Of a stretch of 40,035 nt of DNA, positions 1-40,035 are shown piece by piece. The notes beneath the pieces are model-generated. The model had not been told where the DNA came from, did no database searches, and saw only the letters and a list, made by a program, of their open reading frames with translations. How positions within the stretch are numbered: position 1 is the stretch's first letter; every line of letters begins with the position of its first letter. Origin of the DNA: a virus; the UHGV virus genome UHGV-0090445. One strand, given 5' to 3'. The position numbers and the translations under genes are program-made.

Positions 1-49
1 TGACGGGTAAAAAGTGGATAAAATAATTTTACCCACCGGATTTTTACCC

Positions 50-1207
50 ATGCTCACCGTTAAGCAGATTGAAGCAGCAAAGCCGAAAGAAAAACCATAC
101 CGCCTTCTCGATGGTAATGGCCTGTACCTTTATGTCCCTGTGTCAGGGAAAAAGGTATGGCAGCTTCGCTACAAGATTGACGGTAAGGAGAAAATCCTTA
201 CCGTCGGAAAATATCCGCTTATGACTTTACAGGAGGCAAGGGATAAAGCATGGACCGCGAGGAAAGACATCTCGGTTGGCATCGATCCGGTAAAAGCGAA
301 AAAGGCTTCGTCTAACAACAATTCCTTTAGTGCGATTTACAAGGAATGGTACGAGCACAAGAAGCAAGTATGGTCAGTAGGCTATGCAACTGAACTTGCC
401 AAAATGTTTGATGACGACATTTTACCCATCATCGGCGGCCTTGAGATTCAGGATATTGAGCCGATGCAACTGCTGGAAGTAATCCGCAGATTTGAAGATC
501 GCGGTGCAATGGAACGAGCCAACAAAGCACGCAGAAGATGCGGCGAGGTTTTCCGTTACGCTATTGTCACCGGAAGGGCTAAATATAACCCGGCACCTGA
601 TCTTGCTGACGCCATGAAGGGATACCGCAAGAAGAACTTCCCGTTTCTTCCTGCAGACCAGATCCCGGCATTCAACAAAGCACTGGCAACATTTTCAGGA
701 AGTATCGTATCGCTCATTGCGACCAAAGTTTTACGCTACACAGCCCTAAGAACGAAAGAGCTTCGTTCCATGCAATGGAAGAACGTCGATTTTGAAAACA
801 GGATTATCACTATCGACGCCAGTGTGATGAAGGGACGCAAGATTCATGTGGTCCCGATGTCGGACCAGGTGGTTGAACTTCTCACTACGTTAAGCTCCAT
901 CACCAAACCAGTATCAGAGTTTGTTTTTGCCGGGCGTAACGATAAGAAGAAGCCAATCTGCGAGAACGCGGTGCTACTTGTGATCAAACAAATCGGCTAT
1001 GAAGGTCTGGAAAGCGGTCACGGATTCAGGCATGAATTCAGCACGATTATGAACGAGCACGAATGGCCTGCTGACGCTATTGAAGTGCAACTGGCACATG
1101 CCAACGGCGGATCTGTGCGTGGAATTTACAACCATGCTCAGTATCTAGATAAGCGCAGAGAAATGATGCAGTGGTGGGCGGACTGGCTTGATGGGAAGGT
1201 GGTGTAA
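50..1207 (+). CDS. int: Tyrosine integrase, P4/CP4-57-like family
   Basis: ORF 14..1207 (GTG at 14; first ATG at 50 giving MLTVKQIEAAKPK...). N-terminal arm-binding-like region typical of P4-type integrases; C-terminal catalytic region with HGFRHEF...RGIYNHAQY (His/Arg/Tyr motif). Start choice between 14 and 50 is uncertain. Confidence 0.9.
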   Translation: MLTVKQIEAAKPKEKPYRLLDGNGLYLYVPVSGKKVWQLRYKIDGKEKILTVGKYPLMTLQEARDKAWTARKDISVGIDPVKAKKASSNNNSFSAIYKEWYEHKKQVWSVGYATELAKMFDDDILPIIGGLEIQDIEPMQLLEVIRRFEDRGAMERANKARRRCGEVFRYAIVTGRAKYNPAPDLADAMKGYRKKNFPFLPADQIPAFNKALATFSGSIVSLIATKVLRYTALRTKELRSMQWKNVDFENRIITIDASVMKGRKIHVVPMSDQVVELLTTLSSITKPVSEFVFAGRNDKKKPICENAVLLVIKQIGYEGLESGHGFRHEFSTIMNEHEWPADAIEVQLAHANGGSVRGIYNHAQYLDKRREMMQWWADWLDGKVV

Positions 1208-1255
1208 CGCCACCTTCTTTTCATTTAACAATTTATAATTAACCAGACAATTGAT

Positions 1256-3238
1256 TTAAGCGCTTGCAATAAAATCCATTTCGAATAGCTGTATTCTATC
1301 GTCTGTTATGTAGGCCTCGAAATATGTTCCATCATATGATGATAACTTAACTCCATTTATATGACCAGCATATGTATCATTGTGCATAATAATTAACTGC
1401 CCGTCACCCTTTCCTACATATTTGCACGTCCATGTCCCATTTGTTTTTGTGCTGTTAAGTAATGTAGTCGTTGACTGCACTCCATCCTTACATATTATAC
1501 CTTTTGCTTCATTTCCTATATACCTTATTCCAAAGTAATTTCCTGATTCCACGGAGCCACAAACTATAAAACCATTTAGTGAATTAACTCCAGATGTAAT
1601 TCCATAAGCAACAGCAAAACCAAGATAGTTAAATGTTTCATATTTTAATACAAGCCGTCGCTCTCTTTTATATCTTACAAGTGCCGTACCGCCAACAGTC
1701 CCCGCTCTTACAACTAATCCACCTTCTGCATAATATTCCAACCCTGAACCTGAGCCGGTTACTTTATTGGTAAATTTATCATAGTCTTGAAATTGAGTAT
1801 GGTGCCTTGTTGTCGCAAGCGTAAATGAAGATGTTACTCCATTAATTGATTTTGTAGCTGTTTCAGTTATAAGCCCTACCTGTACTCCATCAACCCTACT
1901 TTGCGCAACTTTACCAATGCACATACCAAAATCATTACCGATAATGATACCGCCTATCGAAACAGCAACCCAACTTTTTAGTGTGCCAGACATTGGCTTT
2001 AGCGCCTGTCCTATTCTTGTTGAGTTTGAGCTTAATACTCCTCCATGCTTTACAACCATCCCTTTATCATTAATTTCGTTACCGAAATCGCATGATTCAA
2101 CTGATATTGTACTATTATATGCCTCAATACACTTATCAACTCCTACCCCATTGAATGAACAATCATTAACAGCGCCAGATGTGCATCCATAAAATTCAAC
2201 TGAAGCATTTTCATCACTGTGTGTTCTATTTGTAAAGTTTAAAGCGTGCAACTCTGGGCTGTATGGTGTGCCTCCGCATGAAAATACCTGGGCTGACCTA
2301 ACATTAACTGTTGTTCTGTCGGTAGTTCTACTTACTATAACAATGTTTGCTTGTTGCGATGCGCCAGGTGGGAATAGAGGTGTGCACCCCCTCTTGCTTC
2401 TGATTACTATGTCTTCATCATAAGTTCCTGGTGCAATTGAGATAATAATTCTCTGCCAATAATTATTTGGGATATCGTCAATTGCTTCCTGAATGGTCCG
2501 GTAATCTTCCGGAACCATGAGTGTTACAGGCATCGTGTAAATACCCGCCACTGTTGACGAGTCAACGCCAAATGGATGGATGTAACCGCGATACGGATCA
2601 TTACCCCCGATAGTATTGATAAATCCTTCAATGCGTACTTTTGCTGAGTTAGTGTACAGATAACCACATTCACCAATATCTACGCGGAACTTCGCCGGGA
2701 TAGTCAGATCTTCTGTAAATTCCACTGGAACGTTGACAAAAACTCGTCCGTTACCAGAGGCGATGGCGCGTTTGAAAGCCTGCGTGTAGTCTGGAGCTGC
2801 TGGGTCTCCTGGCTCAACAAATGCGCGTAGGTCATAAAATCTTTCCTGCTGACCACCAGGGATTAAAAAACCTTTATCTCCTTCAAGCTCCTGCCTTAAC
2901 TGATCAGGGTCATACTTCAATACGTTTGGATAGTAAAATTGCTGTACGCCATATGCATCATATACAGCCATAGAATGGCCTTGCACAGTTACGAATTTGG
3001 CAATCTGTCCGTTATATACAGGATAACCAGCAGCGTTAATGATTATTGGTTGCGAAACAGGAACATGAGAACCATCTTCGTTTTCTACATAAACCTGAAT
3101 CTGGTTTTCAGGATTTACCGGGTCAGTGTCAATTTTACCGATATAAATTTTGCCATTGGCTACCGCTTTAAAAGAACGAGCCATAGTGAAGAGTTGCGAA
3201 GGCATCGATACGATCACATTGGCTGTAATGTCTGTCAT
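1256..3238 (-). CDS. Tailspike protein, P22 gp9 family (conserved N-terminal head-binding domain, divergent receptor-binding body)
   Basis: 660 aa; N-terminus [11 protein letters not shown]...[35 protein letters not shown]...[12 protein letters not shown] closely matches the remembered P22 tailspike head-binding domain; remainder is not P22-like. Confidence 0.9.
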
Positions 3239-3370
3239 TTAATTTGCTCCAGATACAAGGAATCACCGCAGCATGGCTACGGTTGGTGTTTGTTGCATAC
3301 CGAAATGGTACGATTGTTGATTTGTACAGTAGGTTTTACGATGCCATTCCACCCATTTGGTGAGGCATTG

Positions 3371-3628
3371 ATGATGTACAGCAAATACGATGAGGCGCAG
3401 TTCCACTTGAGGCTTACGCACGAGTTGCACGCTAAGATTAAGCAACGTGCAAAAATGAATAACAGGTCTATCAATTCCGAAATTGTGGCTACGATGGAAG
3501 AATCACTCTCCAAACCATCACCTGTAAGCGGGTATCGTGATGAAGAAGAGAGGCTGGCCTCATTAATCTCGGAACGAGTAAAAGAAGTTGTGGCTGATAT
3601 CCTTAGAAAAGAAAAAACCCGCGATTAA
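3371..3628 (+). CDS. Mnt-like ribbon-helix-helix repressor (second copy)
   Basis: Internal start of ORF 2939..3628 at ATG 3371 with SD GGTGAGG upstream; product ...NNRSINSEIVATMEESLSKPSPVSGYRDEEERLA... resembles P22 Mnt (NGRSMNSE...SKPSPVTGYRNDAERLA). The upstream part of the track ORF is antisense to the tailspike and rejected. Confidence 0.75.
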   Translation: MMYSKYDEAQFHLRLTHELHAKIKQRAKMNNRSINSEIVATMEESLSKPSPVSGYRDEEERLASLISERVKEVVADILRKEKTRD

Positions 3629-3636
3629 GCGGGTTT
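3605..3636 (-). terminator. Intrinsic terminator for the ant2-orf73 transcript (between convergent genes)
   Basis: Hairpin AAACCCGC-GATTAA-GCGGGTTT at 3615..3636; on the minus strand it is followed by a T-rich run (complement of 3604..3614). Confidence 0.45.
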
Positions 3637-3642
3637 AGTTGG

Positions 3643-3864
3643 TTAGTTATCAAAAAGTCCGTACGTTTCTTCTTCTTTAGGTGTAAGGGGAAGAATCTCT
3701 ACTCTATCTATAGATACCTTTTCAATGTACCCATGAGGTCTACTTAAAATTAAAGCTCTCTCATGCCACAGAACTCCAAGAATGTGATACCTTCCAGCAT
3801 CGCCTTTTACCCTGGCTCTTCCTTTGATTCTTGGCGGCATAATGCCATATTTTTTCTTTGCCAT
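3643..3864 (-). CDS. Hypothetical protein (73 aa), translationally coupled to upstream antirepressor gene
   Basis: ORF from track; its start overlaps the stop of the 3864..4643 ORF (ATGA); basic N-terminus MAKKKYG; no family recognised. Confidence 0.4.
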   Translation of the reverse strand: MAKKKYGIMPPRIKGRARVKGDAGRYHILGVLWHERALILSRPHGYIEKVSIDRVEILPLTPKEEETYGLFDN

Positions 3865-4592
3865 TATGCAACATTACTCCCATGAATCAGGTGTTGTAGT
3901 GCTTTAACACCCTCCGCATTGTAGCGGAATGCTTCCACCTGTTTGCTTGAATGCGCAGATTTATCCAAGAAGAACTTCCCGTACTGCTCAGTTTTGAGGT
4001 TGTTTGCGTTAGCAATGCGACCAATCTTGTTGGCCGTTACTCCAAGCTGCTCTGCAACCTCCCCTGCTGAGTAGTAATGCTCTTCTATTGCCGGAAGAGG
4101 TATTGCATTAAAACCAACGAGCGGGTTGATTATACTTGCTGCCGCTGTCTGCTTTGCCTCCGGCGCAAGATTTGGCATCAGATCGAACAGATTGGTAACA
4201 GCTTCAACCGTCATTTTCAATGTTCGCGCTTGACGATACTCAACAAGTCCACTCGCTGATTTACCGCTTTTAATGTGCGCTTCTTGCATACTTTCAAGTT
4301 GGTCTACCAGTGAGCGGCGAACGGCTTTTGACTCGCGAGCGGCAACTCGCAATGCTTGCTTGATTGACATCTCAATGATAACCATCGAAGTTTTGTTCGC
4401 TTTTTGCACTACACTTTTTGTGTAGTGCTCTCCATCCAATTCATCTTCAATTTTCTCGATGAATTTGTTATTACGAACCTCCGGCTCACCGCACTGTCTA
4501 CGAGCCTGATTTACCATCTCAAGCAGGCGCTGGCTGTCAATGGTTTTATCCGTGACAACGGATCCGATGTTTGCTACATTCTTAAAAGTCAT
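3864..4592 (-). CDS. Antirepressor-like protein (KilAC/ANT-like C-terminal region)
   Basis: Track ORF 3864..4643; likely start is ATG at 4592 (MTFKNVANIG...) with SD AAGGAA 6 nt upstream; C-terminal motif EVAEQLGVTANKIGRIANANNL resembles the KilAC/ANT region of the nin-region Rha protein in this window. Confidence 0.6.
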   Translation of the reverse strand: MTFKNVANIGSVVTDKTIDSQRLLEMVNQARRQCGEPEVRNNKFIEKIEDELDGEHYTKSVVQKANKTSMVIIEMSIKQALRVAARESKAVRRSLVDQLESMQEAHIKSGKSASGLVEYRQARTLKMTVEAVTNLFDLMPNLAPEAKQTAAASIINPLVGFNAIPLPAIEEHYYSAGEVAEQLGVTANKIGRIANANNLKTEQYGKFFLDKSAHSSKQVEAFRYNAEGVKALQHLIHGSNVA

Positions 4593-4661
4593 TAGGCATT
4601 CCTTATGTGGTAGTAAGGGTGTGACATAGGCCGCCAGCAGCACACTGGCGGTTTTCTTTTT
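4587..4661 (+). ncRNA. Candidate sar-like antisense RNA covering the ant2 translation start
   Basis: Plus-strand promoter-like -35 GTGACA (4552..4557), 17-nt spacer, -10 TACATT (4575..4580); strong intrinsic terminator CCGCCAG-cagcaca-CTGGCGG + TTTTCTTTTT at 4631..4661. No plus-strand gene precedes it; transcript would be antisense to the ant2 SD and start codon. Confidence 0.35.
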
Positions 4662-4680
4662 GCGCCGTCCGGCGCACCAA

Positions 4681-5403
4681 TCAATGAATCCATTCCTCGC
4701 CGCGAAGTTTTGCCAGCATTGGCTGAGCGTTCTTTACGACAAAATTGTTGGTATCAAGATTCTTCATTTCACGAAGAAGTGATTTCTTGGTTTCTTCTGA
4801 CATGTAGCGAGTCTCATATGCAATATCGTAAATCCTTCCTGAAAGCTCAGAACCAATTTGCTTCATTCCTGGGTAGATGTGTTTGCACATTTGTTGACTC
4901 TTCTCCATCCACAATTGTAAGTAGCAGAGATTAACCAGTTCTTCGTCAGTAAACTGTTTTGCAATCGGTGAGCATTCTGCCTGCCGATCCAAAATATCCA
5001 GCACCCAGCGGCGGAACTCTTTGGCCTTGGGCGTAGAAGCAAACATCGCCACCAAGTGAGCGCCTCGGAGCGAGTAAACTCTGACCGATTTGTTACGTAA
5101 GCTATTGTTTATTCCGTTGACCTTCATATTGAGGGTCAATGACATTGAGTCGGAAAATTCGTCAGCATTACGGGCATAAATTTGGCTGATGGCATCAGTT
5201 TTTTTATAGCCGAGAGCCTTAGCTAGTTCGGCGGAGGTGAACCAGATAGACCCGCCCTCTGTTACAGGGTTAAAAGTGAATCCTTGGAAGTTATAATCTG
5301 ATTTTGCTACAATATTCATGTTAGTTTCCTTGGGTACGGTTACTGACATAGAGGCCCGGTTTGTGTTCGCGCACTTCCGGGCTTCACTATTTTTACTGGG
5401 CAT
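4681..5403 (-). CDS. ant: Antirepressor with Bro-N domain
   Basis: Bro-N-like region FTFNPVTEGGSIWFTSAELAKALGYKK...VRVYSLRGAHLVAMFASTPKAKEFRRWVLDIL; start overlaps the Arc stop (coupling); position matches P22 immI arc-ant. Confidence 0.8.
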   Translation of the reverse strand: MPSKNSEARKCANTNRASMSVTVPKETNMNIVAKSDYNFQGFTFNPVTEGGSIWFTSAELAKALGYKKTDAISQIYARNADEFSDSMSLTLNMKVNGINNSLRNKSVRVYSLRGAHLVAMFASTPKAKEFRRWVLDILDRQAECSPIAKQFTDEELVNLCYLQLWMEKSQQMCKHIYPGMKQIGSELSGRIYDIAYETRYMSEETKKSLLREMKNLDTNNFVVKNAQPMLAKLRGEEWIH

Positions 5404-5584
5404 TAGCTCTTTCCTCTCTCAGGCTTTTAGCCAGTCGCTGCACAATCGCAGAGTTGATAGAAATTCCATCCATTTCAGCTACGCGTCTGATCTCCTCCTT
5501 CATTCGCGCTGGCAAACGAAGCTGGAAACTCTGACTTTTACGACCACTGTAAAGAACATCGCTCATCATCAATATCTCCGTCAT
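5393..5584 (-). CDS. arc: Arc-like ribbon-helix-helix repressor
   Basis: 63 aa; FQLRLPARMKEEIRRVAEMDGISINSAIVQRL resembles P22 Arc (FNLRWPREVLDLVRKVAEENGRSVNSEIYQRV). Confidence 0.8.
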   Translation of the reverse strand: MTEILMMSDVLYSGRKSQSFQLRLPARMKEEIRRVAEMDGISINSAIVQRLAKSLREERANAQ

Positions 5585-5585
5585 A

Positions 5586-5640
5586 ATGACATCACCGTGA
5601 TGTCATGACACCATTATGATGCCATTGCTCATAATGTCAA
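5586..5640. promoter_or_regulatory. immI control region: perfect 10-1-10 palindromic operator plus divergent Pant-like and Pmnt-like promoters
   Basis: ATGACATCAC-C-GTGATGTCAT at 5586..5606 immediately upstream of arc; minus-strand promoter -35 TTGACA (complement of 5635..5640), 17-nt spacer, -10 ATAATG (complement of 5612..5617); plus-strand -10 CATAAT near 5630..5635. Confidence 0.5.
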
Positions 5641-5689
5641 TATGATGCTACTGTGTTTTTTATTGCTCATATGCCTTGCGAATAAGAAA

Positions 5690-5941
5690 ATGTCAGAAAA
5701 AGACGAATCAAATTTCATAGAAAGATTTACGGTTAGAATGCCTGACGGCATGCGTAGTGCTATTGCGGAAAGGGCTAAACGAAACGGTCGATCTATGAAC
5801 TCAGAGATAGTTCAAATTCTTGAGGATGCGTTATCATCTGACGTCTCATCAGTAGACAAATCATTAGATCTTAAACAAATAAAATCTTTACTTGATAAAA
5901 TTTCCAACGAGTTACTGGATAGAATCCCAAAAGACACATAA
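5690..5941 (+). CDS. mnt: Mnt/Arc-family ribbon-helix-helix repressor, divergent from arc-ant
   Basis: Internal start at ATG 5690 of ORF 5642..5941; FTVRMPDGMRSAIAERAKRNGRSMNSEIVQILEDAL is an RHH motif; placement and orientation match P22 mnt. Confidence 0.7.
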   Translation: MSEKDESNFIERFTVRMPDGMRSAIAERAKRNGRSMNSEIVQILEDALSSDVSSVDKSLDLKQIKSLLDKISNELLDRIPKDT

Positions 5942-5991
5942 CAAAACATTATCATCCGGTGTTCTGCTCAAAACTAAGGAGTGGCTACTCA

Positions 5992-6630
5992 ATGAAAAAA
6001 ATAGATATATATAGCGATACATCAGCCTATGTCATAGGCTCATTGGGTTTTTTAATTTTTTTTGTTTGGCAGTACCAGTCACTATCTCCAGGATGGCGAT
6101 TTTTTGGGATGTCTTTGATATCACTTGGTGCAGGAATAGCAACGCAGGTGTTGATGTATCTCTTTAATGGATGGCTCTCAAAAAGAGTTGAGAAAAAAAG
6201 AGCTACTTCAATATGTAGAAGCCTAGCTATTCCAGAAGACTCTACAGATCAGGATGATATTGCAAAATGTTGGCGGTATATGATTGCAAGATACTCAAAT
6301 GAGTTACTGGCAAACAGACTGTCCGACTTAATCGGGGTCGTAGTTACCTCTGTTGGAACAATCATCAGTATAGGGATATCAATTTGGTATGTCGGGATGA
6401 TTGTCTATTTTGTTTGGAATAGAGACTTCAATGAACCTTCCCTTCTTTTTATACCTTTATTTTTCAGGGTATTAGCATTCATATGTGAGTTATTGCTCTC
6501 TTTTTTCTGCAATGTTTTGTTCAACAGATACCCAGGTGAAGCAAGAAAGTTTAATAAAAACTATGATGAGTTAAGGAGAACAGATCCTTTTCTATCAAGT
6601 AAAGAGTTCCGCGATTCCATTCGCAATTAA
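5992..6630 (+). CDS. AT-rich predicted 4-TM inner-membrane protein at the SieA position (candidate superinfection exclusion protein)
   Basis: Start ATG 5992 with SD AAGGAG (5977..5982); four hydrophobic segments; AT-rich by eye; sits between mnt and the gp16 homolog as sieA does in P22. Homology to SieA not verifiable here. Confidence 0.65.
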   Translation: MKKIDIYSDTSAYVIGSLGFLIFFVWQYQSLSPGWRFFGMSLISLGAGIATQVLMYLFNGWLSKRVEKKRATSICRSLAIPEDSTDQDDIAKCWRYMIARYSNELLANRLSDLIGVVVTSVGTIISIGISIWYVGMIVYFVWNRDFNEPSLLFIPLFFRVLAFICELLLSFFCNVLFNRYPGEARKFNKNYDELRRTDPFLSSKEFRDSIRN

Positions 6631-6651
6631 CAACATCCATGACATCAACCC

Positions 6652-32157: not shown

Positions 32158-32186
32158 TTGACTCGATAAAGTACAAATCGTACTAT
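32158..32186 (+). promoter_or_regulatory. pL-like promoter
   Basis: -35 TTGACT (32158..32163), 17-nt spacer, -10 TACTAT (32181..32186), about 40 nt upstream of nutL; adjacent GTAC-containing dyad (AAGTAC-aaatc-GTACT). Confidence 0.5.
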
Positions 32187-32226
32187 TTAGCCATCAGCAG
32201 GACGCACTGACCACCATGAAGGTGAG

Positions 32227-32256
32227 GCTCTTAAAAATTAAGCCCTGAAGAAGGGC
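32227..32256 (+). promoter_or_regulatory. nutL (boxA plus boxB), lambda-type
   Basis: GCTCTTAAAAATTAA followed by GCCCTGAAGAAGGGC (32242..32256) then AGCATTCAAAGCAG, matching remembered lambda nutL. Confidence 0.85.
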
Positions 32257-32442
32257 AGCATTCAAAGCAGAAGTCTTTGGGATTGGATGAATGCGCAGGC
32301 TGATGCGCACACGAATGTAACTTGCTGGTCAAGTCTCCCCACAGCGACGGGGGTGCAACTGATTCATTTCGTGGCATGTCTAGCTAGCCGGGGTTCAGCG
32401 CCGGCCATCCAATCACCAAAGCTAACTGACTGGAGAATCCAG

Positions 32443-32769
32443 ATGGATGCACAAACACGCCGCCGCGAACGTCGCGCAGAGAAACAGGCTCAATGGAAAG
32501 CAGCAAATCCCCTGTTGGTTGGGGTAAGCGCAAAACCAGTTAACCGCCCTATTCTCTCGCTGAATCGCAAACCGAAATCACGAGTAGAAAGCGCACTGAA
32601 TCCGATAGACCTTACGGTGCTGGCTGAATACCACGAACAGATTGAAAGCAACCTGCAACGTATTGAGCGCAAGAATCAGCGCACATGGTACAGCAAGCCA
32701 CGCAGTGAAATGGGTGTGACTTGTGTTGGTCGCCAGAAAATGAAATTAGGCAGCAAACCACTTATTTGA
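32443..32769 (+). CDS. N: Antiterminator N (lambda-type)
   Basis: Internal start ATG 32443 of ORF 32287..32769; MDAQTRRRERRAEKQAQWKAANPLLVGVSAKPVNRPILSLNRKPKSRVESALNPIDLTVLAEYH... matches remembered lambda N arginine-rich motif and body. Confidence 0.9.
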   Translation: MDAQTRRRERRAEKQAQWKAANPLLVGVSAKPVNRPILSLNRKPKSRVESALNPIDLTVLAEYHEQIESNLQRIERKNQRTWYSKPRSEMGVTCVGRQKMKLGSKPLI

Positions 32770-32777
32770 GGTGATAT

Positions 32778-33029
32778 ATGGAGTTTCATGAAAGTGCGAT
32801 TTGTGATTTTCGCGCTAACGCAAATTCAGTAAAACCACAGCCAATTGCAGTTCTTTTTAAAACAATGGGTGCGTGGGCTGTTTTATGCTTCGCCGCTGAC
32901 GACACTGACGCAAGAATGGCAATAGGCCAAGAGATGGAGATGGACCCGACAAACGATGAATTCATAATTTATGGCGCTCCATCTAATTACTTACTTGATA
33001 CCTGCAACATTTACAACAAGGCTGCCTGA
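32778..33029 (+). CDS. Hypothetical early protein (83 aa)
   Basis: ORF from track immediately after N; no family recognised. Confidence 0.45.
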   Translation: MEFHESAICDFRANANSVKPQPIAVLFKTMGAWAVLCFAADDTDARMAIGQEMEMDPTNDEFIIYGAPSNYLLDTCNIYNKAA

Positions 33030-33069
33030 TGGTGGCCTTTATTTTTGGCATAAACAATATGGGGTAAAA

Positions 33070-33396
33070 ATGAAAGTTTTAATGGTTTATGAAAATGTTC
33101 CAGAGTCGACTGAAATCTATATTTTTGATGCCAATGAAGATGAAGTTAACGATTTGAAATTGTCTCACGGCAATTACACAAATGCTAATTGTGATGAAAG
33201 TATCGAAAAAGCACTATCACGTGTTCTTGTCAGAATTAGTGATCCAGAACATTGTGATGATGATTGGCTTTCTTATTGTGGAGCGGTAAAAACTGATGCA
33301 GGAAAATGGAGTAAAAGTAAAGTTGATAACTCAACTCCAATTATTATGAAAGATAGCGATATTGAAATGGTAATAATAACCGGAATGATTATGTAG
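33070..33396 (+). CDS. Acidic AT-rich hypothetical early protein (108 aa)
   Basis: Internal start ATG 33070 with SD GGGG; about 21 Asp/Glu vs 10 Lys/Arg by hand count; strongly AT-rich codons. Confidence 0.5.
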   Translation: MKVLMVYENVPESTEIYIFDANEDEVNDLKLSHGNYTNANCDESIEKALSRVLVRISDPEHCDDDWLSYCGAVKTDAGKWSKSKVDNSTPIIMKDSDIEMVIITGMIM

Positions 33397-33502
33397 GCTG
33401 CGAATAAGCACTGTGTATTCATTCCAACGAGTGAATACACGGAGCAATGTCGCTCGTAACTAAACAGGAGACGACTTGTTCTGATTATTGGAAATCTTCT
33501 TT

Positions 33503-33529
33503 GCCCTCCAATGTGAGGGCGATTTTTTA
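33503..33529 (+). terminator. Intrinsic terminator inside the pL operon
   Basis: GCCCTC-CAATGT-GAGGGC followed by GATTTTTTAT. Confidence 0.4.
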
Positions 33530-33548
33530 TCTGTGAGGATATGAACAG

Positions 33549-33917
33549 ATGTCAAACATCAAAAAATACATCATTGATTACGACTGGAAAGCATCAATAG
33601 AAATTGAAATCGACCATGACGTAATGACAGAGGAAAAACTTCACCAGATTAATAATTTCTGGTCAGACTCTGAATACCGACTCAATAAACACGGCGCTGT
33701 ATTAAATGCTGTATTAATCATGCTGGCGCAACATGCTCTGCTTATAGCAATTTCGAAAGACTTAAATGCATATGGTGTTGTTTGTGAGTTCGACTGGGAT
33801 GATGGAAATGGTCAGGAAGGATGGCCTCCAATGGATGGTAGTGAAGGAATAAGAATTACCGATATCGATACATCAGGAATATTTGATTCAGATGATATGA
33901 CTATCAAAGCCGCCTGA
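33549..33917 (+). CDS. Acidic hypothetical early protein (122 aa)
   Basis: ORF from track; about 23 Asp/Glu vs 9 Lys/Arg by hand count, acidic C-terminal region EFDWDDGNGQEGWPPMDGSEG...FDSDDM. Confidence 0.55.
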   Translation: MSNIKKYIIDYDWKASIEIEIDHDVMTEEKLHQINNFWSDSEYRLNKHGAVLNAVLIMLAQHALLIAISKDLNAYGVVCEFDWDDGNGQEGWPPMDGSEGIRITDIDTSGIFDSDDMTIKAA

Positions 33918-33951
33918 GAGCGTTTTTAAAGAATACAACGAAGGAGGATAT

Positions 33952-34920
33952 ATGAGTGAAGTAACAGATTTAGTTGTTATTGAAAAAGCAAATGCAATGA
34001 CTGTATTTCAGTCTGCCGACCAGATTGAAGAAATCCTTCAAAGGGTTGAACGTGAAGTTATGTCCTTTGTGCCTGATATCACAACGGCAAAGGGCAGAAA
34101 GGAGATCGCTTCTCTGGCGTATAAAGTTGCGCAGACGAAAACATATCTCGATGGTCTTGGCAAAGACCTTGTTGCTGAACTGAAGGAAATTCCAAAGCTA
34201 ATTGATGCCAACCGCAAGACAGTGCGTGATCGCCTTGATGAGCTGAAAGCCAAGGCGCGCCAGCCTCTTACTGATTATGAGGAGGAACAGGCACGGATTA
34301 AAGCCGAAGAAGAAGCTAAGGCAGCAGCTGAAGCTCTCGCAAAGCAAATTGAGTCTGACCATGAAATAGCGATTTTGATGGATCGCGAATTTGACCGCCA
34401 AAGAGAAGAGGCAAGACTCAAAGCGGAGCAGGAAAAGCGAGAGCATGAAGAACGCTTAAAAAGAGAAGCTGAAGAGAAAGCCAGAGCAGAAGCCGAAGCA
34501 AAGGCAAAAGCCGAAATTGAAGCAGCAGCAAGGAGAGAAGCAGAAGCTAAGGCCGCAGCGGAACGTGCAGAGCGTGAACGCATTGAAGCCGAGCAACGAG
34601 CACAGCGCGAAGCAAAAGAGGCAGCAGAACGAGCTGAAAGAGAAAAGCAGGCGGCAATTGAAGCAGAACGCCGAAAAGCACAGGAGGAGGCTGAACGAAT
34701 CCGGCGCGAAGCTGAAGCAAAAGAGCAAGCCAGAATAGCAGAAGAAAAAAGAATCAAGGACGAAGAAGAGCGTAGAGCAAAGGATAAAGCTCACCGGAAA
34801 GAAGTAAATAACAAAATACTTGCTGACCTTATCAAGGTTGGCGCATCAGAAGATGTTGCTAAAAATATCATAACAGCCATCGTAAAAGGCGAAGTATTCG
34901 CAACAAAAATAACCTACTAA
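33952..34920 (+). CDS. DUF1351-like coiled-coil protein with Ala/Glu/Lys/Arg-rich low-complexity centre
   Basis: 322 aa; conserved-looking N- and C-terminal regions flanking about 130 aa of AEAKAKAE/ERAERE repeats; lies in the recombination module upstream of the annealing protein. Family name from memory. Confidence 0.6.
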   Translation: MSEVTDLVVIEKANAMTVFQSADQIEEILQRVEREVMSFVPDITTAKGRKEIASLAYKVAQTKTYLDGLGKDLVAELKEIPKLIDANRKTVRDRLDELKAKARQPLTDYEEEQARIKAEEEAKAAAEALAKQIESDHEIAILMDREFDRQREEARLKAEQEKREHEERLKREAEEKARAEAEAKAKAEIEAAARREAEAKAAAERAERERIEAEQRAQREAKEAAERAEREKQAAIEAERRKAQEEAERIRREAEAKEQARIAEEKRIKDEEERRAKDKAHRKEVNNKILADLIKVGASEDVAKNIITAIVKGEVFATKITY

Positions 34921-34944
34921 TAAAACCAACATAAGGAACCACCC

Positions 34945-35076
34945 ATGATTTACGCAATCGCGGGAGGCGCTCGCATGGGTGCCTTCCAATTAAATGAATC
35001 TTTACTTGAACGAATCATCCGTAAATTACGTGACGGATGGAAAAGAGTTGAGGTCTTATTATGCGCAATGAAATAG
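34945..35076 (+). CDS. cIII: CIII-like protease inhibitor (small; absent from the ORF track)
   Basis: 43 aa MIYAIAGGARMGAFQLNESLLERIIRKLRDGWKRVEV...; ESLLERI.RKLRDGWKR matches remembered lambda CIII core; SD AAGGA upstream. Confidence 0.6.
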   Translation: MIYAIAGGARMGAFQLNESLLERIIRKLRDGWKRVEVLLCAMK

Positions 35077-35213
35077 CCATTAATCACCAGATGCTTCGTG
35101 CTGCACAGAACAAAGCAGTAATAGCCAGATTTATTGGTGATTCAAAAATGTGGCTTGAAGCAAATAAAGCGATGAAATCAGCTATCAACCTTCCGTGGTA
35201 TCGCAGGAAATGA
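35061..35213 (+). CDS. kil: Kil-like small protein (absent from the ORF track)
   Basis: 50 aa; VIARFIGDSKMWLEANKAMKSAI resembles remembered lambda Kil (TIATFIGDEKMFREA); overlaps cIII end as in lambda. Confidence 0.45.
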   Translation: MRNEIAINHQMLRAAQNKAVIARFIGDSKMWLEANKAMKSAINLPWYRRK

Positions 35214-35287
35214 GTTTTACAGATAACTGGTCAGACGAAGAATTCATTCTTCAGATGAAAGAATTAATCGGTAACGAAGGAGATATT

Positions 35288-35461
35288 CATGTCACTTGCA
35301 ACCACAGTGAAGGAGAGCAAGTTACAGAGACGCATGTACACGCAGAAAGCTCTCTGGTATCGCCATAATGGCGACCGCGAAGGAATGCGGGTATGCCTTA
35401 ATTTGTCCAGAGTCGAAGTATTAAATCAGCGTTATTTCCTTGGGCCGTGTCCATTCTGAGG
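35288..35461 (+). CDS. Small hypothetical protein (57 aa) with strong SD
   Basis: AAGGAG 5 nt upstream of ATG 35288; an alternative overlapping 52-aa ORF (35210..35368) in another frame cannot be excluded. Confidence 0.3.
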
Positions 35462-35467
35462 TGAATT

Positions 35468-36175
35468 ATGGATTTGAATAAATTCGATGAGCCATTCAGC
35501 CACGAAGATATCGAATGGCGAATACAGCAAAGCGGTAAAACACGCGATGGCAAGGTGTGGGCTATGGTGCTGGCTTATGTCACGAACCGGGCAATCATGA
35601 AACGCCTGGACGATGTTTGCGGCAAAGCAGGATGGCGCAATGAATACCGCGATATTCCCAACAACGGCGGAGTTGAATGCGGCATATCAATCAAGATTGA
35701 TTCCGAATGGGTAACCAAATGGGATGCTGCTGAAAACACGCAGGTAGAAGCCGTCAAAGGTGGTCGTTCCGGTGCAATGAAGCGCGCTGCCGTTCAGTGG
35801 GGAATCGGTCGGTATCTGTATAACCTTGAGGAAGGTTTCGCACAAACATCTCTCGATAAAAAGCATGGGTGGCACAGGGCAAAACTGAAGGATGGAACAG
35901 GATTTTACTGGCTCCCTCCATCGCTTCCGGGATGGGCAATCCCAGCATCAGATAACAAACCATCACCAGAAAATATCAACCAGAAATCTCCATCGGTTGA
36001 CTGCGAACAAATCCTGAAAGACTTCAGCGATTATGCGTCAACAGAAACTGACAAGAAAAAACTCATCGAGCGTTATCAGCATGACTGGCAATTAATGGCT
36101 GGCAATGAGGATGCGCAGGCTAAATGCGTTCAGGTAATGAACATCAGAGTTAACGAACTAAAACAGGCGGCATAA
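35468..36175 (+). CDS. Single-strand annealing protein: Rad52/Sak-like N-terminal domain fused to P22 Erf-like C-terminal tail
   Basis: 235 aa; N-terminal region (GKVWAMVLAYVTNRAIMKRLDDVCG...AMKRAAVQWGIGRYLYNL) Rad52/Sak-like; C-terminal ...QILKDFSDYASTETDKKKLIERYQHDWQLMAGNEDAQAKCVQVMNIRVNELKQAA matches remembered P22 Erf C-terminus. Confidence 0.8.
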   Translation: MDLNKFDEPFSHEDIEWRIQQSGKTRDGKVWAMVLAYVTNRAIMKRLDDVCGKAGWRNEYRDIPNNGGVECGISIKIDSEWVTKWDAAENTQVEAVKGGRSGAMKRAAVQWGIGRYLYNLEEGFAQTSLDKKHGWHRAKLKDGTGFYWLPPSLPGWAIPASDNKPSPENINQKSPSVDCEQILKDFSDYASTETDKKKLIERYQHDWQLMAGNEDAQAKCVQVMNIRVNELKQAA

Positions 36176-36643
36176 ATGTCTCACTTGGACGGAATTATTA
36201 AAAGATTCGAGTCCAGCTACAAAGTTAATGAAACAACAGGTTGCTGGGAGTCTACCTATTCAAAAAACAAAGGAGGATACACAAAATTTGTAGCCTTTGG
36301 CGTAACAATGCTTTCTCATCGGGTTGCTTTTGAGCTTTATCACTCCCCCATTCCATCTGGGAAGATGGTTTGCCACAAATGCGATAACCCATGCTGCGTT
36401 AATCCTGAACATCTCTTTTTAGGTAGCGCGCAAGAAAACATGGACGACAAGATAGCAAAAGGAAGGCATCGTGGAGCCAAGAAAGGTCATGCTCATCATG
36501 GTGCAAAATTAACAGAGTGGCAGGTTATAGAAATTAGGAAAAGACTCTCTGAAAAAGAGAGTCAGTACAAGATAGCAAAAGACATGGGTGTATCTCAATC
36601 AATTATAAGCAACATAAAAACTGGCAAGAGGTGGAGAAAATGA
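36176..36643 (+). CDS. HNH homing endonuclease with C-terminal HTH-like region, insertion between annealing protein and SSB
   Basis: 155 aa; Cys/His-rich HNH-like core ([26 protein letters not shown]); C-terminal [22 protein letters not shown]; stop overlaps ssb start (ATGA). Confidence 0.8.
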
Positions 36644-37146
36644 GTTCTCGCGGGATAAATAAGGTGATTATCCTTGGTCGGGTAGGACAAGACCCGGAAG
36701 TTCGATACTCACCATCAGGAACAGCGTTCGCTAACCTGACAATAGCCACGTCAGAACAATGGCGAGATAAAAATACTGGCGAGCAAAAGGAATTGACTGA
36801 ATGGCATCGTGTTGCTGTATCCGGGAAACTGGCTGAGGTCGTGGGGCAGTATGTGAAAAAAGGTGATCAGATTTATTTCGAGGGAATGCTGAGAACCAGA
36901 AAGTGGAAAGACCAGTCAGGGCAAGACCGTTACACAACCGAGGTTCATGTCGGAATTAATGGCGTGATGCAAATGCTTGGCAGCATTGGCGACAGCAAAC
37001 AACAAGCAGCCAGCAGGCAATCACAGAAGCCACAGCAGCAATCATCACCAGCACAACACAACGAACCTCCGATGGATTTTGACGACGATATACCCTTTGC
37101 ACCAGTAACTCTCCCCTTCCCTCGTCACGCTATTCACGCAATTTAA
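36640..37146 (+). CDS. ssb: Single-stranded DNA-binding protein with C-terminal extension past the DDDIPF tip
   Basis: [23 protein letters not shown]...[15 protein letters not shown]...[18 protein letters not shown] close to E. coli-type SSB; ends ...MDFDDDIPF then 15 further residues ([15 protein letters not shown]). Confidence 0.85.
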
Positions 37147-37159
37147 TCAGGAGAAAATC

Positions 37160-37456
37160 ATGCCAGCGCCTCAGTATGGTGCGGATGACCCGCGCCGCTG
37201 TTCCGGCAATTCCGTATCGGAGGTGCTGGATAAATTCAGGAAAAACTACGACCGGATAATGTCGCTACCGCAGGAAACGAAAGAGGAAAAGGAATTTCGC
37301 CATTGTATATGGCTTGCAGAGAAAGAAGAACGCGAGCGAATTTACCAGACATCAATCCGACCATTCCGCAAAGCCACATATACCAACTTCCCTGAATATA
37401 TCGACCCGCGCCTGCGTAATTACCGCTCACGATATGGCGCTATCAGTAATGACTGA
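37160..37456 (+). CDS. Hypothetical protein (98 aa)
   Basis: ORF from track, co-directional early-left gene; no family recognised. Confidence 0.5.
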
Positions 37457-37634
37457 GGAATTTACCATGAGAGGACTTGCATACAATCCCGGCATTCTTC
37501 CGGCAGAAATGATTATTCGCCAACGCGTAAAGCCAATGCCATCGAGAGAGGAATTGCTTAAGAGAAAGAGTTTCGGTTCTGTTAACGACAACAGATATCT
37601 GAATGCGACGTGGCGCAAAGGAGGCAACCAGTGA
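37449..37634 (+). CDS. Small hypothetical protein (about 55-61 aa)
   Basis: In-frame C-terminal part of track ORF 37314..37634; ATG at 37449 overlaps the previous stop, alternative ATG 37467 with SD GAGGA; its stop TGA overlaps the next GTG start. Confidence 0.4.
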
Positions 37635-37885
37635 GTAATTCAGCACGACTACAGCTTGGTTTTTCACCGCTATCAAAAACTATCATGCTGGCAAAAATGC
37701 GCGATGTTGAAGGTGGGCGTATGCGCGTTGGCAATGATCCAGGTCGTGATGTTACCAATGAGGCTGCTCAATTGGTGTGGCGACTGGTCATGGTTGAAGG
37801 TGGTGAGATCGCGTGGGAGCTGGATGATGGTTCTCGCATGGTGTTGAAGGCAGAAAAGCAGGAGGCAACCAGTGAGCCAGATTGA
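37631..37885 (+). CDS. Hypothetical protein (84 aa, GTG start)
   Basis: GTG at 37631 preceded by AAGGAGG (37618..37624) with 6-nt spacing; track ORF 37610..37885. Confidence 0.5.
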
Positions 37886-38408
37886 TTATCAGGCACTGCG
37901 TGCTAAGGCAGAAAAAGCAACGTGTGGCGAGTGGTCGCTCGAATATGGAGAGAGCCGATTTGATTGTGATGATGCGCTAATTCATCGTGACATTGTTGGA
38001 TATCTTCCCATTTGCAGAATTGAAGGAGCGCATCCTGAAAGCGGTTTCGATGAAGATTTCCAAACTGAACAGCAGGCCAATGCTGAATTCATCGCCGCAG
38101 CCAATCCGGCTACCGTGCTGGCACTACTGGATGAACGGGAAAGGAACCAGCAATACATCAAACTCCGCGATCAGGAGAACGAGGAAATTGCGCTAACGGT
38201 AGGGAAGCTGCGTGTTGAGCTGGAAGCCGCAGAGAAGCGCATTGCAGAACTGGAAGCACGGGAGGTTGTACTGCCGCGTGCGCACGATGTTCACCCATTA
38301 GGGCCGCAGTCGGCGAAAATTTTTTGTGAGTTTCACCGGAGTATCGTGAACAGATGCGCCGATGAGATTCGCAAGGTTGGCGTCAAAGTCAGCATCAAGG
38401 GGAATTAG
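37872..38408 (+). CDS. Ead/Ea22-like protein
   Basis: 178 aa, GTG start preceded by AGGAGG; motif QQANAEFIAAANPATVLALLDERE followed by coiled-coil-like segment, typical of Ea22-like proteins as I recall them. Confidence 0.65.
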   Translation: MSQIDYQALRAKAEKATCGEWSLEYGESRFDCDDALIHRDIVGYLPICRIEGAHPESGFDEDFQTEQQANAEFIAAANPATVLALLDERERNQQYIKLRDQENEEIALTVGKLRVELEAAEKRIAELEAREVVLPRAHDVHPLGPQSAKIFCEFHRSIVNRCADEIRKVGVKVSIKGN

Positions 38409-38412
38409 GGAT

Positions 38413-39123
38413 ATGGCTGAACTAACCAAAGAATGGCTGAAGCAAACTATCGCTGAATACGAAGCCAATCGTGATGAATTACCGTTTGGACTGGATACCA
38501 ACAGTGCCATTGGGCTTCAGGCGTTCAAGTTGGCGCTGGCATCACTGGAAGCAGAGCCGGTGGCGTGGAAGGCAACCTTCACGCAAATTAACCATGAATG
38601 TAATACGTTCACCCTTATGAATTCTGACAAAGCAGAAATCGAACGGTGGGTGCGACTGCATAAAGTAGGTGATTTTCGGGCAGAAATAACACCGCTTTAC
38701 GCAGCGCCGCCAGCGATGGTAGTGCCTGATGAAATGGATTTACTTACCTGCCATCTCGACGGTGTAACTGAAACATATGCTGATGGCTGGAACGCCTGCC
38801 GTGTCGCCATGCTTCAGTCCGGAAACTTTCGGGATAATAAGAATTCGTCAACCAACAATTTTCGGGAAATCCCGGAAACGTCAACCAGCTCTCCGGGAAC
38901 TCCGGCTGGCTGGATAAGCTGTAGTGAGCGAATGCCTGAAAAGAACCAGAACGTGCTTATTTCGGTGAATTTCGATAGCTCTCTGGTTGAACCGCTAATA
39001 TGCTCCGCACGCTATACCGGAAGCACCTTTCGACGCGGAGATGCAACGATTAAGCCGGGTAATGGTATTGAGCAAGCAACCCACTGGATGCCGCTACCAG
39101 AACCGCCGCAGGAGATGAAGTAA
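38413..39123 (+). CDS. Hypothetical protein with DUF551-like C-terminal region
   Basis: Internal start ATG 38413 (MAELTKEWLKQ...) of ORF 38362..39123; C-terminal WISCSERMPEKNQNVLISVNFD...WMPLPEPP resembles DUF551-type phage domains. Confidence 0.55.
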   Translation: MAELTKEWLKQTIAEYEANRDELPFGLDTNSAIGLQAFKLALASLEAEPVAWKATFTQINHECNTFTLMNSDKAEIERWVRLHKVGDFRAEITPLYAAPPAMVVPDEMDLLTCHLDGVTETYADGWNACRVAMLQSGNFRDNKNSSTNNFREIPETSTSSPGTPAGWISCSERMPEKNQNVLISVNFDSSLVEPLICSARYTGSTFRRGDATIKPGNGIEQATHWMPLPEPPQEMK

Positions 39124-39401
39124 TGGACTCCTTCGCGAAATATACGATTATTGACTGGATTGCCTTCCTTCAGGTTTTGCTCATCTGGTTTTATATGGCT
39201 TACAGGAGTGGGCAGTGGATTGTCAGTGTAGCCTGTAGCAAGGGATGGCGTTGGTGGAACAGAAAGAATAAAAAAGCACTGGCATTGGATTCGTTTTACG
39301 AAGCATTCAATCTTAACAGCCTTCAGCCTGGTTCTGTCATTGTAGTCCCCACTCAAAGCGGCATGACCATTCAGATTCATAAACCAAAAGAGGAAAAATG
39401 A
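39123..39401 (+). CDS. Hypothetical protein (92 aa) with one hydrophobic segment
   Basis: ORF from track; start overlaps preceding stop. Confidence 0.5.
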   Translation: MDSFAKYTIIDWIAFLQVLLIWFYMAYRSGQWIVSVACSKGWRWWNRKNKKALALDSFYEAFNLNSLQPGSVIVVPTQSGMTIQIHKPKEEK

Positions 39402-39487
39402 TGTGGCCTATATGTGTTAATTGCGGACGGATGTGCCTATCTGGATGGTGCCGAAAGTGCGACAAATGCACGAAGAAAAGACAATAA
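39398..39487 (+). CDS. Small Cys-rich ORF (29 aa), possible zinc-binding peptide
   Basis: ATG overlaps previous stop (ATGA); MMWPICVNCGRMCLSGWCRKCDKCTKKRQ; too short for the ORF track. Confidence 0.25.
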   Translation: MMWPICVNCGRMCLSGWCRKCDKCTKKRQ

Positions 39488-39490
39488 CAA

Positions 39491-39517
39491 TCCTCGCACT
39501 CGCGGGGATTTCTTTTA
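39491..39517 (+). terminator. Intrinsic terminator
   Basis: CCTCGC-ACTC-GCGGGG followed by ATTTCTTTTAT. Confidence 0.4.
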
Positions 39518-39559
39518 TCTGAACTCGCTACGGCGGGTTTTGTTTTATGGAGATGATAA

Positions 39560-39727
39560 ATGCACTTCCGAGTCACAGGTGAATGGAATGGAGAGCCATT
39601 CAACAGAGTTATCGAAGCAGAGGACATCAATGACTGCTATAACCACTGGATGATATGGGCGCAGATAGCAAATGCAGACGTAACCAATATTCGAATTGAA
39701 GAACTGAAAGAACACCAATCCGCCTGA
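39560..39727 (+). CDS. Small hypothetical protein (55 aa)
   Basis: SD GGAG 7 nt upstream of ATG 39560; stop lies inside a terminator hairpin. Confidence 0.35.
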   Translation: MHFRVTGEWNGEPFNRVIEAEDINDCYNHWMIWAQIANADVTNIRIEELKEHQSA

Positions 39728-39740
39728 TGGCGGTTTTTTA
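39720..39740 (+). terminator. Intrinsic terminator upstream of xis
   Basis: CCGCC-TGAT-GGCGG followed by TTTTTTATT. Confidence 0.5.
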
Positions 39741-39784
39741 TTGCCTGATTTGCAGGTTCGATTCCCTATTCGGAGATAGCACTC

Positions 39785-39985
39785 ATGCAACACGAACTAC
39801 AACCTGATTCACTGGTTGATTTGAAATTCATCATGGCTGATACTGGCTTTGGTAAAACCTTCATCTATGACCGGATTAAGTCCGGCGACCTGCCAAAAGC
39901 CAAAGTTATCCACGGGCGAGCAAGATGGTTATATCGTGACCATTGTGAATTCAAAAATAAGCTCTTAAGCCGCGCCAATGGGTAA
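39785..39985 (+). CDS. xis: AlpA-family excisionase / integrase regulator
   Basis: 66 aa; LVDLKFIMADTGFGKTFIYDRIKSGDLPKAKVIHGRARWLYRDHCEF is typical of AlpA/Xis-type winged-helix proteins encoded just upstream of P4-like integrases. Confidence 0.8.
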   Translation: MQHELQPDSLVDLKFIMADTGFGKTFIYDRIKSGDLPKAKVIHGRARWLYRDHCEFKNKLLSRANG

Positions 39986-40035
39986 AATAGCGGGTAAAAT
40001 ATTTCTCACATCTAAAAAACACCATTCCAATCAAT

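Follow-up and report, generated by a model that had tools for sequence, protein, structure and literature searches.

Does the 40,035-nucleotide (nt) virus sequence UHGV-0090445, analyzed here at its full length and called the window, represent a free phage genome opened at an arbitrary point or a prophage cut out of a chromosome? An original prediction, made from the letters alone, had read it as a complete, circularly permuted P22-like genome with contiguous ends and lambda-derived modules, with an integrase gene at the left edge and an excisionase gene at the right. We found that the window is almost certainly the interior of a P22-like temperate podovirus prophage (Lederbergvirus, CUS-3/Sf6/HK620 group), integrated at the 3' end of the Escherichia coli argW tRNA-Arg(CCU) gene through an IntS/TorI (KplE1-type) module. 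Judged from its sequence, the prophage is gene-complete and apparently intact, with all genes lying within the window and neither attachment (att) core included.

Integrated copy and attachment sites

Exact-protein look-ups with the tailspike, an HNH endonuclease, and a KilA-N protein all pointed to one ENA scaffold, FENG15-1_SAMEA3136659_METAG-scaffold_1, a 731-kb E. coli scaffold from a gut metagenome, and the whole window was 100% identical to its positions 452,151-492,185. Three overlapping scaffold pieces, equivalent to window 1-13238, 11497-32027, and 26176-40035, each aligned at 100.000% with 0 mismatches and 0 gaps, and one offset served all three (window x = scaffold 452150 + x). To the left of base 1, the scaffold continued with a 111-nt attL arm and the argW 3' end, CTGCAGGGGACACCA, where ARAGORN called tRNA-Arg(CCT), followed by yfdC, mlaA, fadL, and fadIJ. 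To the right of base 40035, 23 nt preceded a second CTGCAGGGGACACCA, the csc sucrose genes (cscB/K/A/R-like), and dsdA. The published KplE1 core is CTGCAGGGGACACCAT, in a module conserved in CUS-3, HK620, and Sf6 (PMC2951348); this 16-mer was present left of the window, matched the right-hand scaffold copy at 15 of 16 positions, and was absent from both strands of the window itself. Host genes (argW/yfdC on the left, csc/dsdA on the right) and att core repeats were thus found outside both ends, which the original prediction had taken to be contiguous. On the attR side of the scaffold, the csc cluster (cscB, cscK, cscA, and cscR-like) was accompanied by a short GntP-permease fragment and dsdA; the same prophage type adjoins dsdC-dsdX on this side in other E. 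coli.

Alignment to the relatives located what is missing. The window end and start fell at 18138 and 17987 in Sf6 and at 1407 and 1256 in HK620, and in both phages the 150 bp skipped includes the attP core CTGCAGGGGACACCAT, annotated between the torI-type and int genes. The missing phage DNA amounts to 150 bp (111 + 16 + 23), and with this gap and no core, joining the end to the start rebuilds no normal xis-attP-int region. The attP rebuilt from the scaffold flanks aligned without gaps over 350 nt to Sf6 (98.3%) and HK620 (97.4%), and the argW-intS ... torI-host layout also occurred in RefSeq E. coli chromosomes and in the CUS-3 and phiv205-1 prophage records. We also considered a free phage with a 150-bp deletion and rejected it, since in the identical integrated copy the two att cores lie exactly as far out as expected. 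Repeats of GGGTAAAA were concentrated in the outermost 50 nt of both ends. Primers of the published KplE1 substrates match window 50-73 for attL, a 220-bp substrate that ends at window 73, and 39962-39981 for attR, so the window keeps no more than the inner 73-74 nt of either att region. Because the identical integrated copy carries att core repeats just outside both ends and host genes beyond them, the linear order is that of a circle opened at attP (the Campbell or integration permutation), neither arbitrary nor produced by headful packaging.

Both partners of the recombination module, an IntS-type tyrosine integrase and a TorI-type recombination directionality factor, were present. IntS was identical to Sf6 Int at 381/385 residues and to HK620 Int at 379/385, against 22-23% identity to P22 and lambda Int, and RefSeq annotates the homologue as intS, adjoining tRNA-Arg. 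Its start was placed at base 50, the GTG at 14 being an upstream extension of the open reading frame (ORF). TorI serves the KplE1/HK620/Sf6 module as its recombination directionality factor and is 100% identical to HkaC and Sf6 P18 (PMC3509656). TorI/IntS-dependent excision would be expected by analogy, from protein identity to the studied KplE1/HK620 proteins. The integrase (start at 50) and the excisionase (66 codons, ending at 39985) do occupy the left and right edges and are neighbors on the circular phage map, as had been proposed; they stand at opposite ends of the window because attP lies between them. A normal xis-int operon, for which the original prediction suggested a check by joining the ends, does not result: attP separates torI from intS, and transcription of the two is uncoupled in the KplE1 module, unlike lambda int-xis, since intS has a separate promoter that overlaps attL and is itself under repression by IntS and TorI (PMC2951348).

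A second candidate site was rejected. Window 39750-39765 holds TTGCAGGTTCGATTCC, which the CUS-3 GenBank record marks as attL/attR core (record positions 1-16 and 40192-40207); bounded by this sequence, the record ends upstream of torI and of the real attR. The scaffold, Sf6, HK620, phiv205-1, and the KplE1 literature all put the core downstream of torI. The same 16-mer occurs in Sf6 and HK620, where it is annotated as the pI promoter and cII site.

Gene content and virion genes

The ORF map showed ~65 densely packed genes in three blocks (Table 1). Each sizeable or plausible ORF could be assigned to a known phage family with Pfam, PHROGs, and precomputed Pfam calls from identical contigs, in agreement with the proposal that every gene is phage-like. 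G+C content ran unremarkably from 37% to 53% along the window. ARAGORN found no tRNA genes in the window, so the tRNA-Asn/Thr pair located downstream of Q in Sf6 and 720R6 is absent; Rfam at gathering thresholds gave zero matches in the window, leaving sar, oop, and similar RNAs undetected by Rfam; PADLOC returned zero defense systems for ten accessory proteins; and no insertion sequence (IS) elements were present in the window.

The full P22-type morphogenesis set that had been predicted was recovered, with all 13 assembly genes lying at full length on the minus strand in their canonical order (terS, terL, portal, scaffold, coat, gp4, gp10, gp26, gp14, gp7, gp20, gp16, and tailspike). The cluster runs colinearly with P22-like phages from 19893-20333 down to 1256-3238, with the immI-like region between gp16 and the tailspike. 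Pfam matches included P22_CoatProtein, P22_portal, P22_Tail-4, Phage_stabilise, Phage_tail_NK, P22_gp7, Inj_translocase, Phage_P22_gp16, and Terminase_3, and the proteins were as long as their CUS-3 or Sf6 homologues. TerS, TerL, portal, scaffold, coat, and gp4 shared 94-100% of their amino acids (aa) with CUS-3 and 22-55% with P22 or Sf6, except for TerL (97% to Sf6); the head genes TerS, portal, scaffold, and coat are thus of CUS-3 type. Since TerS and TerL were 97-100% identical to CUS-3, we infer a short-tailed virion with pac-initiated headful packaging of circularly permuted, terminally redundant DNA. Further, gp10 and gp14 were conserved across all compared phages, the needle, gp7, and gp20 were 92-97% identical in aa to Sf6 (gp20 and gp7 97%), and gp16 was nearest to phiv205-1 (98% nt). 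On these comparisons, the virion block is itself mosaic.

The tailspike (gp9 analogue) begins with a P22-type head-binding domain (PF09008, E=2e-66 over residues 1-113), and its PDB sequence matches were confined to residues 1-126 (the Sf6, P22, and HK620 tailspike N-termini). The receptor-binding part (residues 120-660; window 1256-2881, minus strand) was 61% identical in aa to Escherichia phage CBA6 and otherwise ~30% to Vibrio phages, had no sequence relative in PDB, and gave a weak Pectinesterase/pectin-lyase-fold signal. The exact tailspike protein occurred in 5 contigs only. The neighboring immI-like region (3371-6630) was 98.8% nt identical to the E. coli T2 prophage. The stop codons of intS and the tailspike gene are only 48 bp apart (1207-1256), and the O-antigen- or capsule-modifying conversion gene that relatives carry at this spot (Sf6 oac, HK620 hkcF, CUS-3 neuO, P22 gtrABC) is absent; the lack of an O-antigen-modifying gene adjoining int is unusual for the Lederbergvirus group. 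Separately, a 21,598-nt Logan contig, ERR688624_221, was exactly equal to window 1153-22750; its two ends fall within the 3' end of intS and within Rz, as would fit an assembly broken where other prophages of the sample have the sequence in common.

Intact or defective prophage

Several observations weigh against an intact, integrated prophage of this group as the source of the window. Among 50,697 phage records (INPHARED) searched with megablast, no phage covered at least 80% of the window halves or ends, and neither did any complete RefSeq E. coli genome, so the prophage has no named phage equivalent. With a 55-nt tailspike segment as pattern, the exact window was absent from IMG/VR, GTDB-representative, and JGI metagenome scans, IMG/VR giving a single 8.3-kb fragment at 99% identity and the GTDB representatives and JGI metagenomes none. 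Inducibility is a prediction here, a point defect would be invisible to these sequence methods, and the window could derive from an identical sequence elsewhere rather than from the matching scaffold.

Inducibility and point defects bear on the strongest alternative, that the element is a defective cryptic prophage like KplE1/CPS-53 in K-12, unable to excise or make particles, with which it shares the argW locus and the IntS/TorI module. We consider this unlikely. KplE1 is a 10.2-kb remnant without a repressor (PMC2951348), whereas the window holds 40 kb with ~65 intact ORFs. Its 13 assembly genes are full length when set against the functional phages CUS-3, Sf6, and HK620, no damage is visible in cI, cro, N, Q, or the replication and lysis genes, the scaffold contains both att cores, and no IS element interrupts it. 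Homologues in CUS-3, Sf6, and phiv205-1 likewise showed the assembly, lysis, replication, and regulatory genes to be full length.

Lambda-like modules

Mosaics of P22-like and lambda-like modules have long been described, and the original prediction held N, nutL, nutR, CII, NinE, and S/R/Rz/Rz1 to be near-identical to lambda. BLASTN against lambda gave nine high-scoring segment pairs of at least 80 nt (12 in total) at 90.6-97.8% identity, and the lambda-matching total at ≥85% identity was 3,861 nt, or 9.6% of the window. The resemblance to lambda held for several of the modules, within this small fraction of the window and with the exception of Rz and Rz1. At the protein level, identities to lambda were 98/107 for N, 93/97 for CII, 54/60 for NinE, 52/56 for NinF, 106/107 for S, 155/158 for R, and 119/122 for ea10. 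Rz and Rz1 were P22-type, with Rz 62.5% identical to lambda and 88% to P22 gp15, and Rz1 41% to lambda and 92% to P22. The lysis cassette is a hybrid in which S and R are lambda-type (98-99% aa) and Rz turns to the P22 gp15 type after approximately its first 35 codons.

The elements of lambda-specific N/nut antitermination were all found, namely the N arginine-rich motif, nutL, and nutR, and each lambda boxB sequence occurred exactly once in the window, with 0 expected by chance. The nutL boxA is identical to that of Sf6, with which it has its change from lambda in common. In contrast, neither lambda itself nor lambda immunity is represented. The cI protein is a domain chimera relative to lambda, with 133/136 identities in the C-terminal (dimerization/cleavage) domain and 24% in the N-terminal DNA-binding domain, cro was 30% identical, and Int 23%; Q, cro, ninB, Int, Xis, and the replication genes were not lambda-like, and lambda 1-29000 had no nt match in the window except ea-region fragments. 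The whole immunity region was 99% identical to Dewey, 720R6, 683R2, Louie, and phi458 and ~93% to the Stx phages Nil2 and 2851.

Most of the lambda-like segments were matched equally well or better in Sf6, CUS-3, and 720R6: N and nutL were 95.9-98% identical to Sf6 and 720R6, S/R 96.5% to 720R6, and ninE/ninF 96-97% to Sf6 and CUS-3, and among seven phages compared, lambda was the best match only for 33529-33936 (ea10) and a 91-nt stretch. From these comparisons, the pieces are ordinary mosaic modules of a shared lambdoid gene pool, already indicated by the annotations of the HK620 and Sf6 records, and not evidence of derivation from lambda, so that calling them lambda-derived, at an identity of 92-98%, overstated the case. 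A direct and recent acquisition from lambda itself could draw on the nine segment pairs, the identical nutR, and the near-identical S and R, and is nonetheless very improbable: none of the segments is identical to lambda, other P22-like phages match most of them at least as well, the nutL boxA change is common to Sf6, and the direction of transfer is not inferable.

The reading of the window as a complete free genome (virion or circular replicon), linearized arbitrarily between xis and int with contiguous ends, accommodates the presence of all phage genes and the placing of xis and int on the same strand at the two edges, and is the least credible of all, because the end-to-start junction omits exactly the 150 bp with the attP core, without which a phage could not integrate, and the identical sequence sits integrated in a chromosome between att repeats and host genes.

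Comparison with named relatives

The P22-like and lambdoid phages with megablast matches numbered in the hundreds, at 90-97% identity, with phiv205-1, CUS-3, vB_EcoP-720R6, Kapi1, JEP4, Sf101, Sf6, and HK620 as the best records. P22 itself matched 3% of the window at ≥85% nt identity; P22-like is therefore right, and a phage of the CUS-3/Sf6/HK620 group is the more precise description.

The best overall nt matches, phiv205-1 (MN340231) and vB_EcoP-720R6 (ON470605), covered 51-53% of the window at ≥85% identity. The former has the same attL-intS ... torI-attR layout and differs in its IS insertions and in its tailspike, immunity, and replication module. The latter agrees with the window in its immunity region (99.2%) and carries a related primase-helicase, but uses a lambda-type Int/Xis adjoining the bio operon. 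Positions 1-7628 of the 720R6 record (ON470605.1) were ~7.6 kb of host chromosome (uvrB, bioDCFBA, and a kinase inhibitor gene), and the record ends in lambda-type xis-int, which indicates a prophage region cut with host DNA attached.

CUS-3 (CP000711; the prophage of K1 E. coli RS218) shares the prophage orientation and the argW site and matched 49% of the window at ≥85% nt identity. It differs in its endosialidase tailspike and neuO conversion gene, neither of which the window has, in its immunity region, replication genes (O and a DnaB-type P), gp20, gp16, and needle, and in lacking the two HNH insertions. Sf6 (NC_005344) and HK620 (NC_002730) share the torI-attP-intS module at 97-98% nt and the lambda-type S and R; Sf6 further shares the needle, gp7, and gp20 and the lambda-type N and nutL, and HK620 the nin region from rusA to ninB. 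They differ in their tailspike receptor domains, immunity, and replication modules, and have a different type of head genes, the coat being 22% identical in aa to Sf6.

KplE1/CPS-53 has the same attB (argW), 16-nt core, and TorI (100%), with intS at attL and torI at attR, but lacks morphogenesis genes as well as a repressor. Lambda (NC_001416) is like the window in N/nutL/nutR specificity, in the overall lambdoid regulatory layout, and, at 90-99% aa, in CII, the cI C-terminal domain, ea10, lambdap35, NinE/NinF, S, and R; it differs in Int/Xis, att site, the cI DNA-binding domain, cro, operators, O/P, Q, and Rz/Rz1, and its virion genes are absent from the window. P22 (NC_002371) shares the gene order and families of the whole virion module, the tailspike head-binding domain, gp10, gp14, and gp7 (84-93% aa), and Rz/Rz1. 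Its portal, coat, scaffold, and terminase were 27-36% identical in aa or unalignable, its Int/Xis and thrW att site are unrelated, its attP lies downstream of int, and its gtrABC is not in the window.

Other features

The remaining regions comprise the Q and nin genes, a replication module, small genes between lysis and terS, and the early-left operon (Table 1). The two free-standing HNH_3 genes (25106-25630, minus strand; 36176-36643, plus strand) had no nt match at these places in CUS-3, Sf6, or HK620, and for this reason look like homing-endonuclease insertions.

Table 1. Coordinates of blocks, genes, sites, and lambda-matching segments in the window
Feature	Position	Strand	Remarks
Block 1: intS	far left	+	ORF map
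Block 2: tailspike, immI-like, ejection, tail, head, terminase, lysis, Q, nin, replication, cII, cro	1256 to ~31260	-	ORF map
Block 3: cI, N, early-left operon, excisionase	31337-39985	+	ORF map
Inner attL P' arm, upstream of intS	1-49	+	GGGTAAAA repeats at 5-12(+), 27-34(-), 42-49(-); core and 111-nt arm outside window
intS, tyrosine integrase, 385 aa	50-1207	+	Arm-DNA-bind_3, Phage_int_M, Phage_integrase (Pfam)
Tailspike, 660 aa	1256-3238	-	P22-type head-binding domain PF09008
Arc/Mnt-like	3371-3628	+	
73-aa ORF	3643-3864	-	
Anti-repressor-family protein	3864-4592	-	
Ant (Bro-N/P22_AR_C)	4681-5403	-	
Arc	5393-5569	-	
Arc/Mnt-like	5642-5941	+	
SieA-like	5992-6630	+	
gp16, ejection	6652-8517	-	Pfam Phage_P22_gp16
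gp20, ejection	8517-9812	-	Pfam Inj_translocase
gp7, ejection	9822-10514	-	Pfam P22_gp7
gp14	10517-10972	-	protein comparison
Tail needle gp26 with knob	10972-11925	-	protein comparison
gp10	11925-13343	-	protein comparison
gp4	13353-13814	-	protein comparison
Coat	14025-15278	-	CUS-3-type; Pfam P22_CoatProtein
Scaffold	15297-16190	-	CUS-3-type
Portal	16281-18479	-	CUS-3-type; Pfam P22_portal
TerL	18481-19896	-	CUS-3-type; Pfam Terminase_3
TerS	19893-20333	-	CUS-3-type
DUF2560	20336-20578	-	between lysis and terS
gp49/Sf6-gp66 family	20682-21056	-	between lysis and terS
KilA-N protein	21497-22027	-	between lysis and terS
Rz	22372-22809	-	P22-type
Rz1	22425-22610	-	P22-type; embedded in Rz
Segment: S, R, 5' part of Rz	22550-23930		92.4% nt to lambda
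R	22806-23282	-	lambda-type
S	23266-23589	-	lambda-type
Q	24073-24561	-	phage-21/82-type, not lambda Q
Q and nin region	24073-27388	-	ninH, rusA, HNH endonuclease, ybcO/hkbD, roi, ninF, ninE, ninB
HNH endonuclease	25106-25630	-	between rusA and ybcO
ninF	26632-26802	-	
Segment: ninE, ninF	26637-26974		95.9% nt to lambda
ninE	26799-26981	-	
ninB	26978-27388	-	
Toprim/AAA_25 primase-helicase	27679-29559	-	not lambda O/P
HTH_36 initiator	29670-30467	-	not lambda O/P
cII, 98 aa	30630-30926	-	93/97 to lambda CII
Segment: cII and nutR	30634-31039		96.8% nt to lambda
nutR	31006-31037	-	boxA CGCTCTTA, spacer, boxB GCCCTGAAAAAGGGC; identical to lambda
cro	31046-31261	-	30% to lambda cro
Immunity region, including OR between cro and cI	31046-32032		immunity type of Dewey, 720R6, phi458
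cI	31337-32032	+	domain comparison to lambda
Segment: cI C-terminal half	31622-32026		93.6% nt to lambda
Segment: nutL	32192-32281		97.8% nt to lambda
nutL	32226-32256	+	boxA GGCTCTTA, one change from lambda; boxB GCCCTGAAGAAGGGC, identical to lambda
Segment: N	32414-32744		93.7% nt to lambda
N antiterminator, 108 aa	32443-32769	+	residues 1-64 identical to lambda N, including arginine-rich motif
Early-left operon	32778-39727	+	begins with two small ORFs
Segment: ea10	33408-33936		97.2% nt to lambda
ea10/DUF2528	33549-33917	+	97.5% aa to lambda
Sf6-gp33-like	33952-34920	+	
cIII	34945-35076	+	
kil	35061-35213	+	
Rad52-type recombinase	35468-36175	+	
HNH endonuclease	36176-36643	+	between Rad52-type recombinase and ssb
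ssb	36640-37146	+	
abc2	37160-37456	+	
DUF2737, then DUF7446	between abc2 and Ead/Ea22	+	
Ead/Ea22	37872-38408	+	
Segment: ea22 fragment	38115-38231		90.6% nt to lambda
DUF551	38362-39123	+	
DUF4752	39123-39401	+	
Segment: lambdap35 region	39484-39747		95.8% nt to lambda
lambdap35 homologue	39560-39727	+	
TTGCAGGTTCGATTCC	39750-39765	+	exact 16-nt copy of argW T-arm; 20 nt upstream of torI start
torI/hkaC, recombination directionality factor (excisionase), 66 aa	39785-39985	+	66/66 identical to PDB 1Z4H (E. coli K-12 TorI) and HK620 HkaC
Inner attR P arm	39962-40035	+	GGGTAAAA at 39980 and 39992; att core starts 23 nt past window end

Proposed life cycle and significance

Starting from what the sequence shows (integration, att repeats, the 150-bp gap, and gene content), and drawing for the later steps on work on KplE1, HK620, and lambda, we propose the following course. 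Since attP lies between torI and intS, Campbell integration opens the phage circle there. This leaves intS at attL, transcribed into the prophage from a promoter within attL, and makes torI the final PL-operon gene at the opposite, attR end; the window begins 111 nt inward of the attL core and stops 23 nt short of the attR core. Upon repressor loss or induction, N acting at the lambda-type nutL would let PL transcription reach torI, and TorI, IntS, and integration host factor could recombine attL with attR, releasing a circle of ~40,185 bp with a normal attP restored. The HTH_36 initiator and the Toprim/AAA_25 primase-helicase would replicate this circle, the non-lambda-type Q would switch on S/R/Rz/Rz1 and the P22-type assembly operon, and the CUS-3-type terminase would package the DNA by headful from a pac site.

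An int and a xis at opposite ends of such a sequence are the signature of an integrated prophage with attP between them, in the KplE1/HK620/Sf6 arrangement, and not of an arbitrarily opened circle. A record of this kind comes without the att core, and annotation pipelines that trim a prophage to its gene boundaries lose its att sites. The element adds another mosaic to the P22-like prophages of gut E. coli and is mildly distinctive only in its rare tailspike receptor domain and its two free-standing HNH endonuclease insertions. A joint reading that goes further appears to us possible, though doubtful: that this is a functional, undescribed Lederbergvirus species whose tailspike may recognize an O-antigen new to P22-like phages, and that the argW T-arm 16-mer just before torI may have been left behind by an older att junction, not just serve as a pI promoter element. 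No phage record reaches 80% coverage, and the receptor domain has a single phage relative at 61%. If this reading is true, the relic 16-mer would show how the IntS/TorI module was captured.

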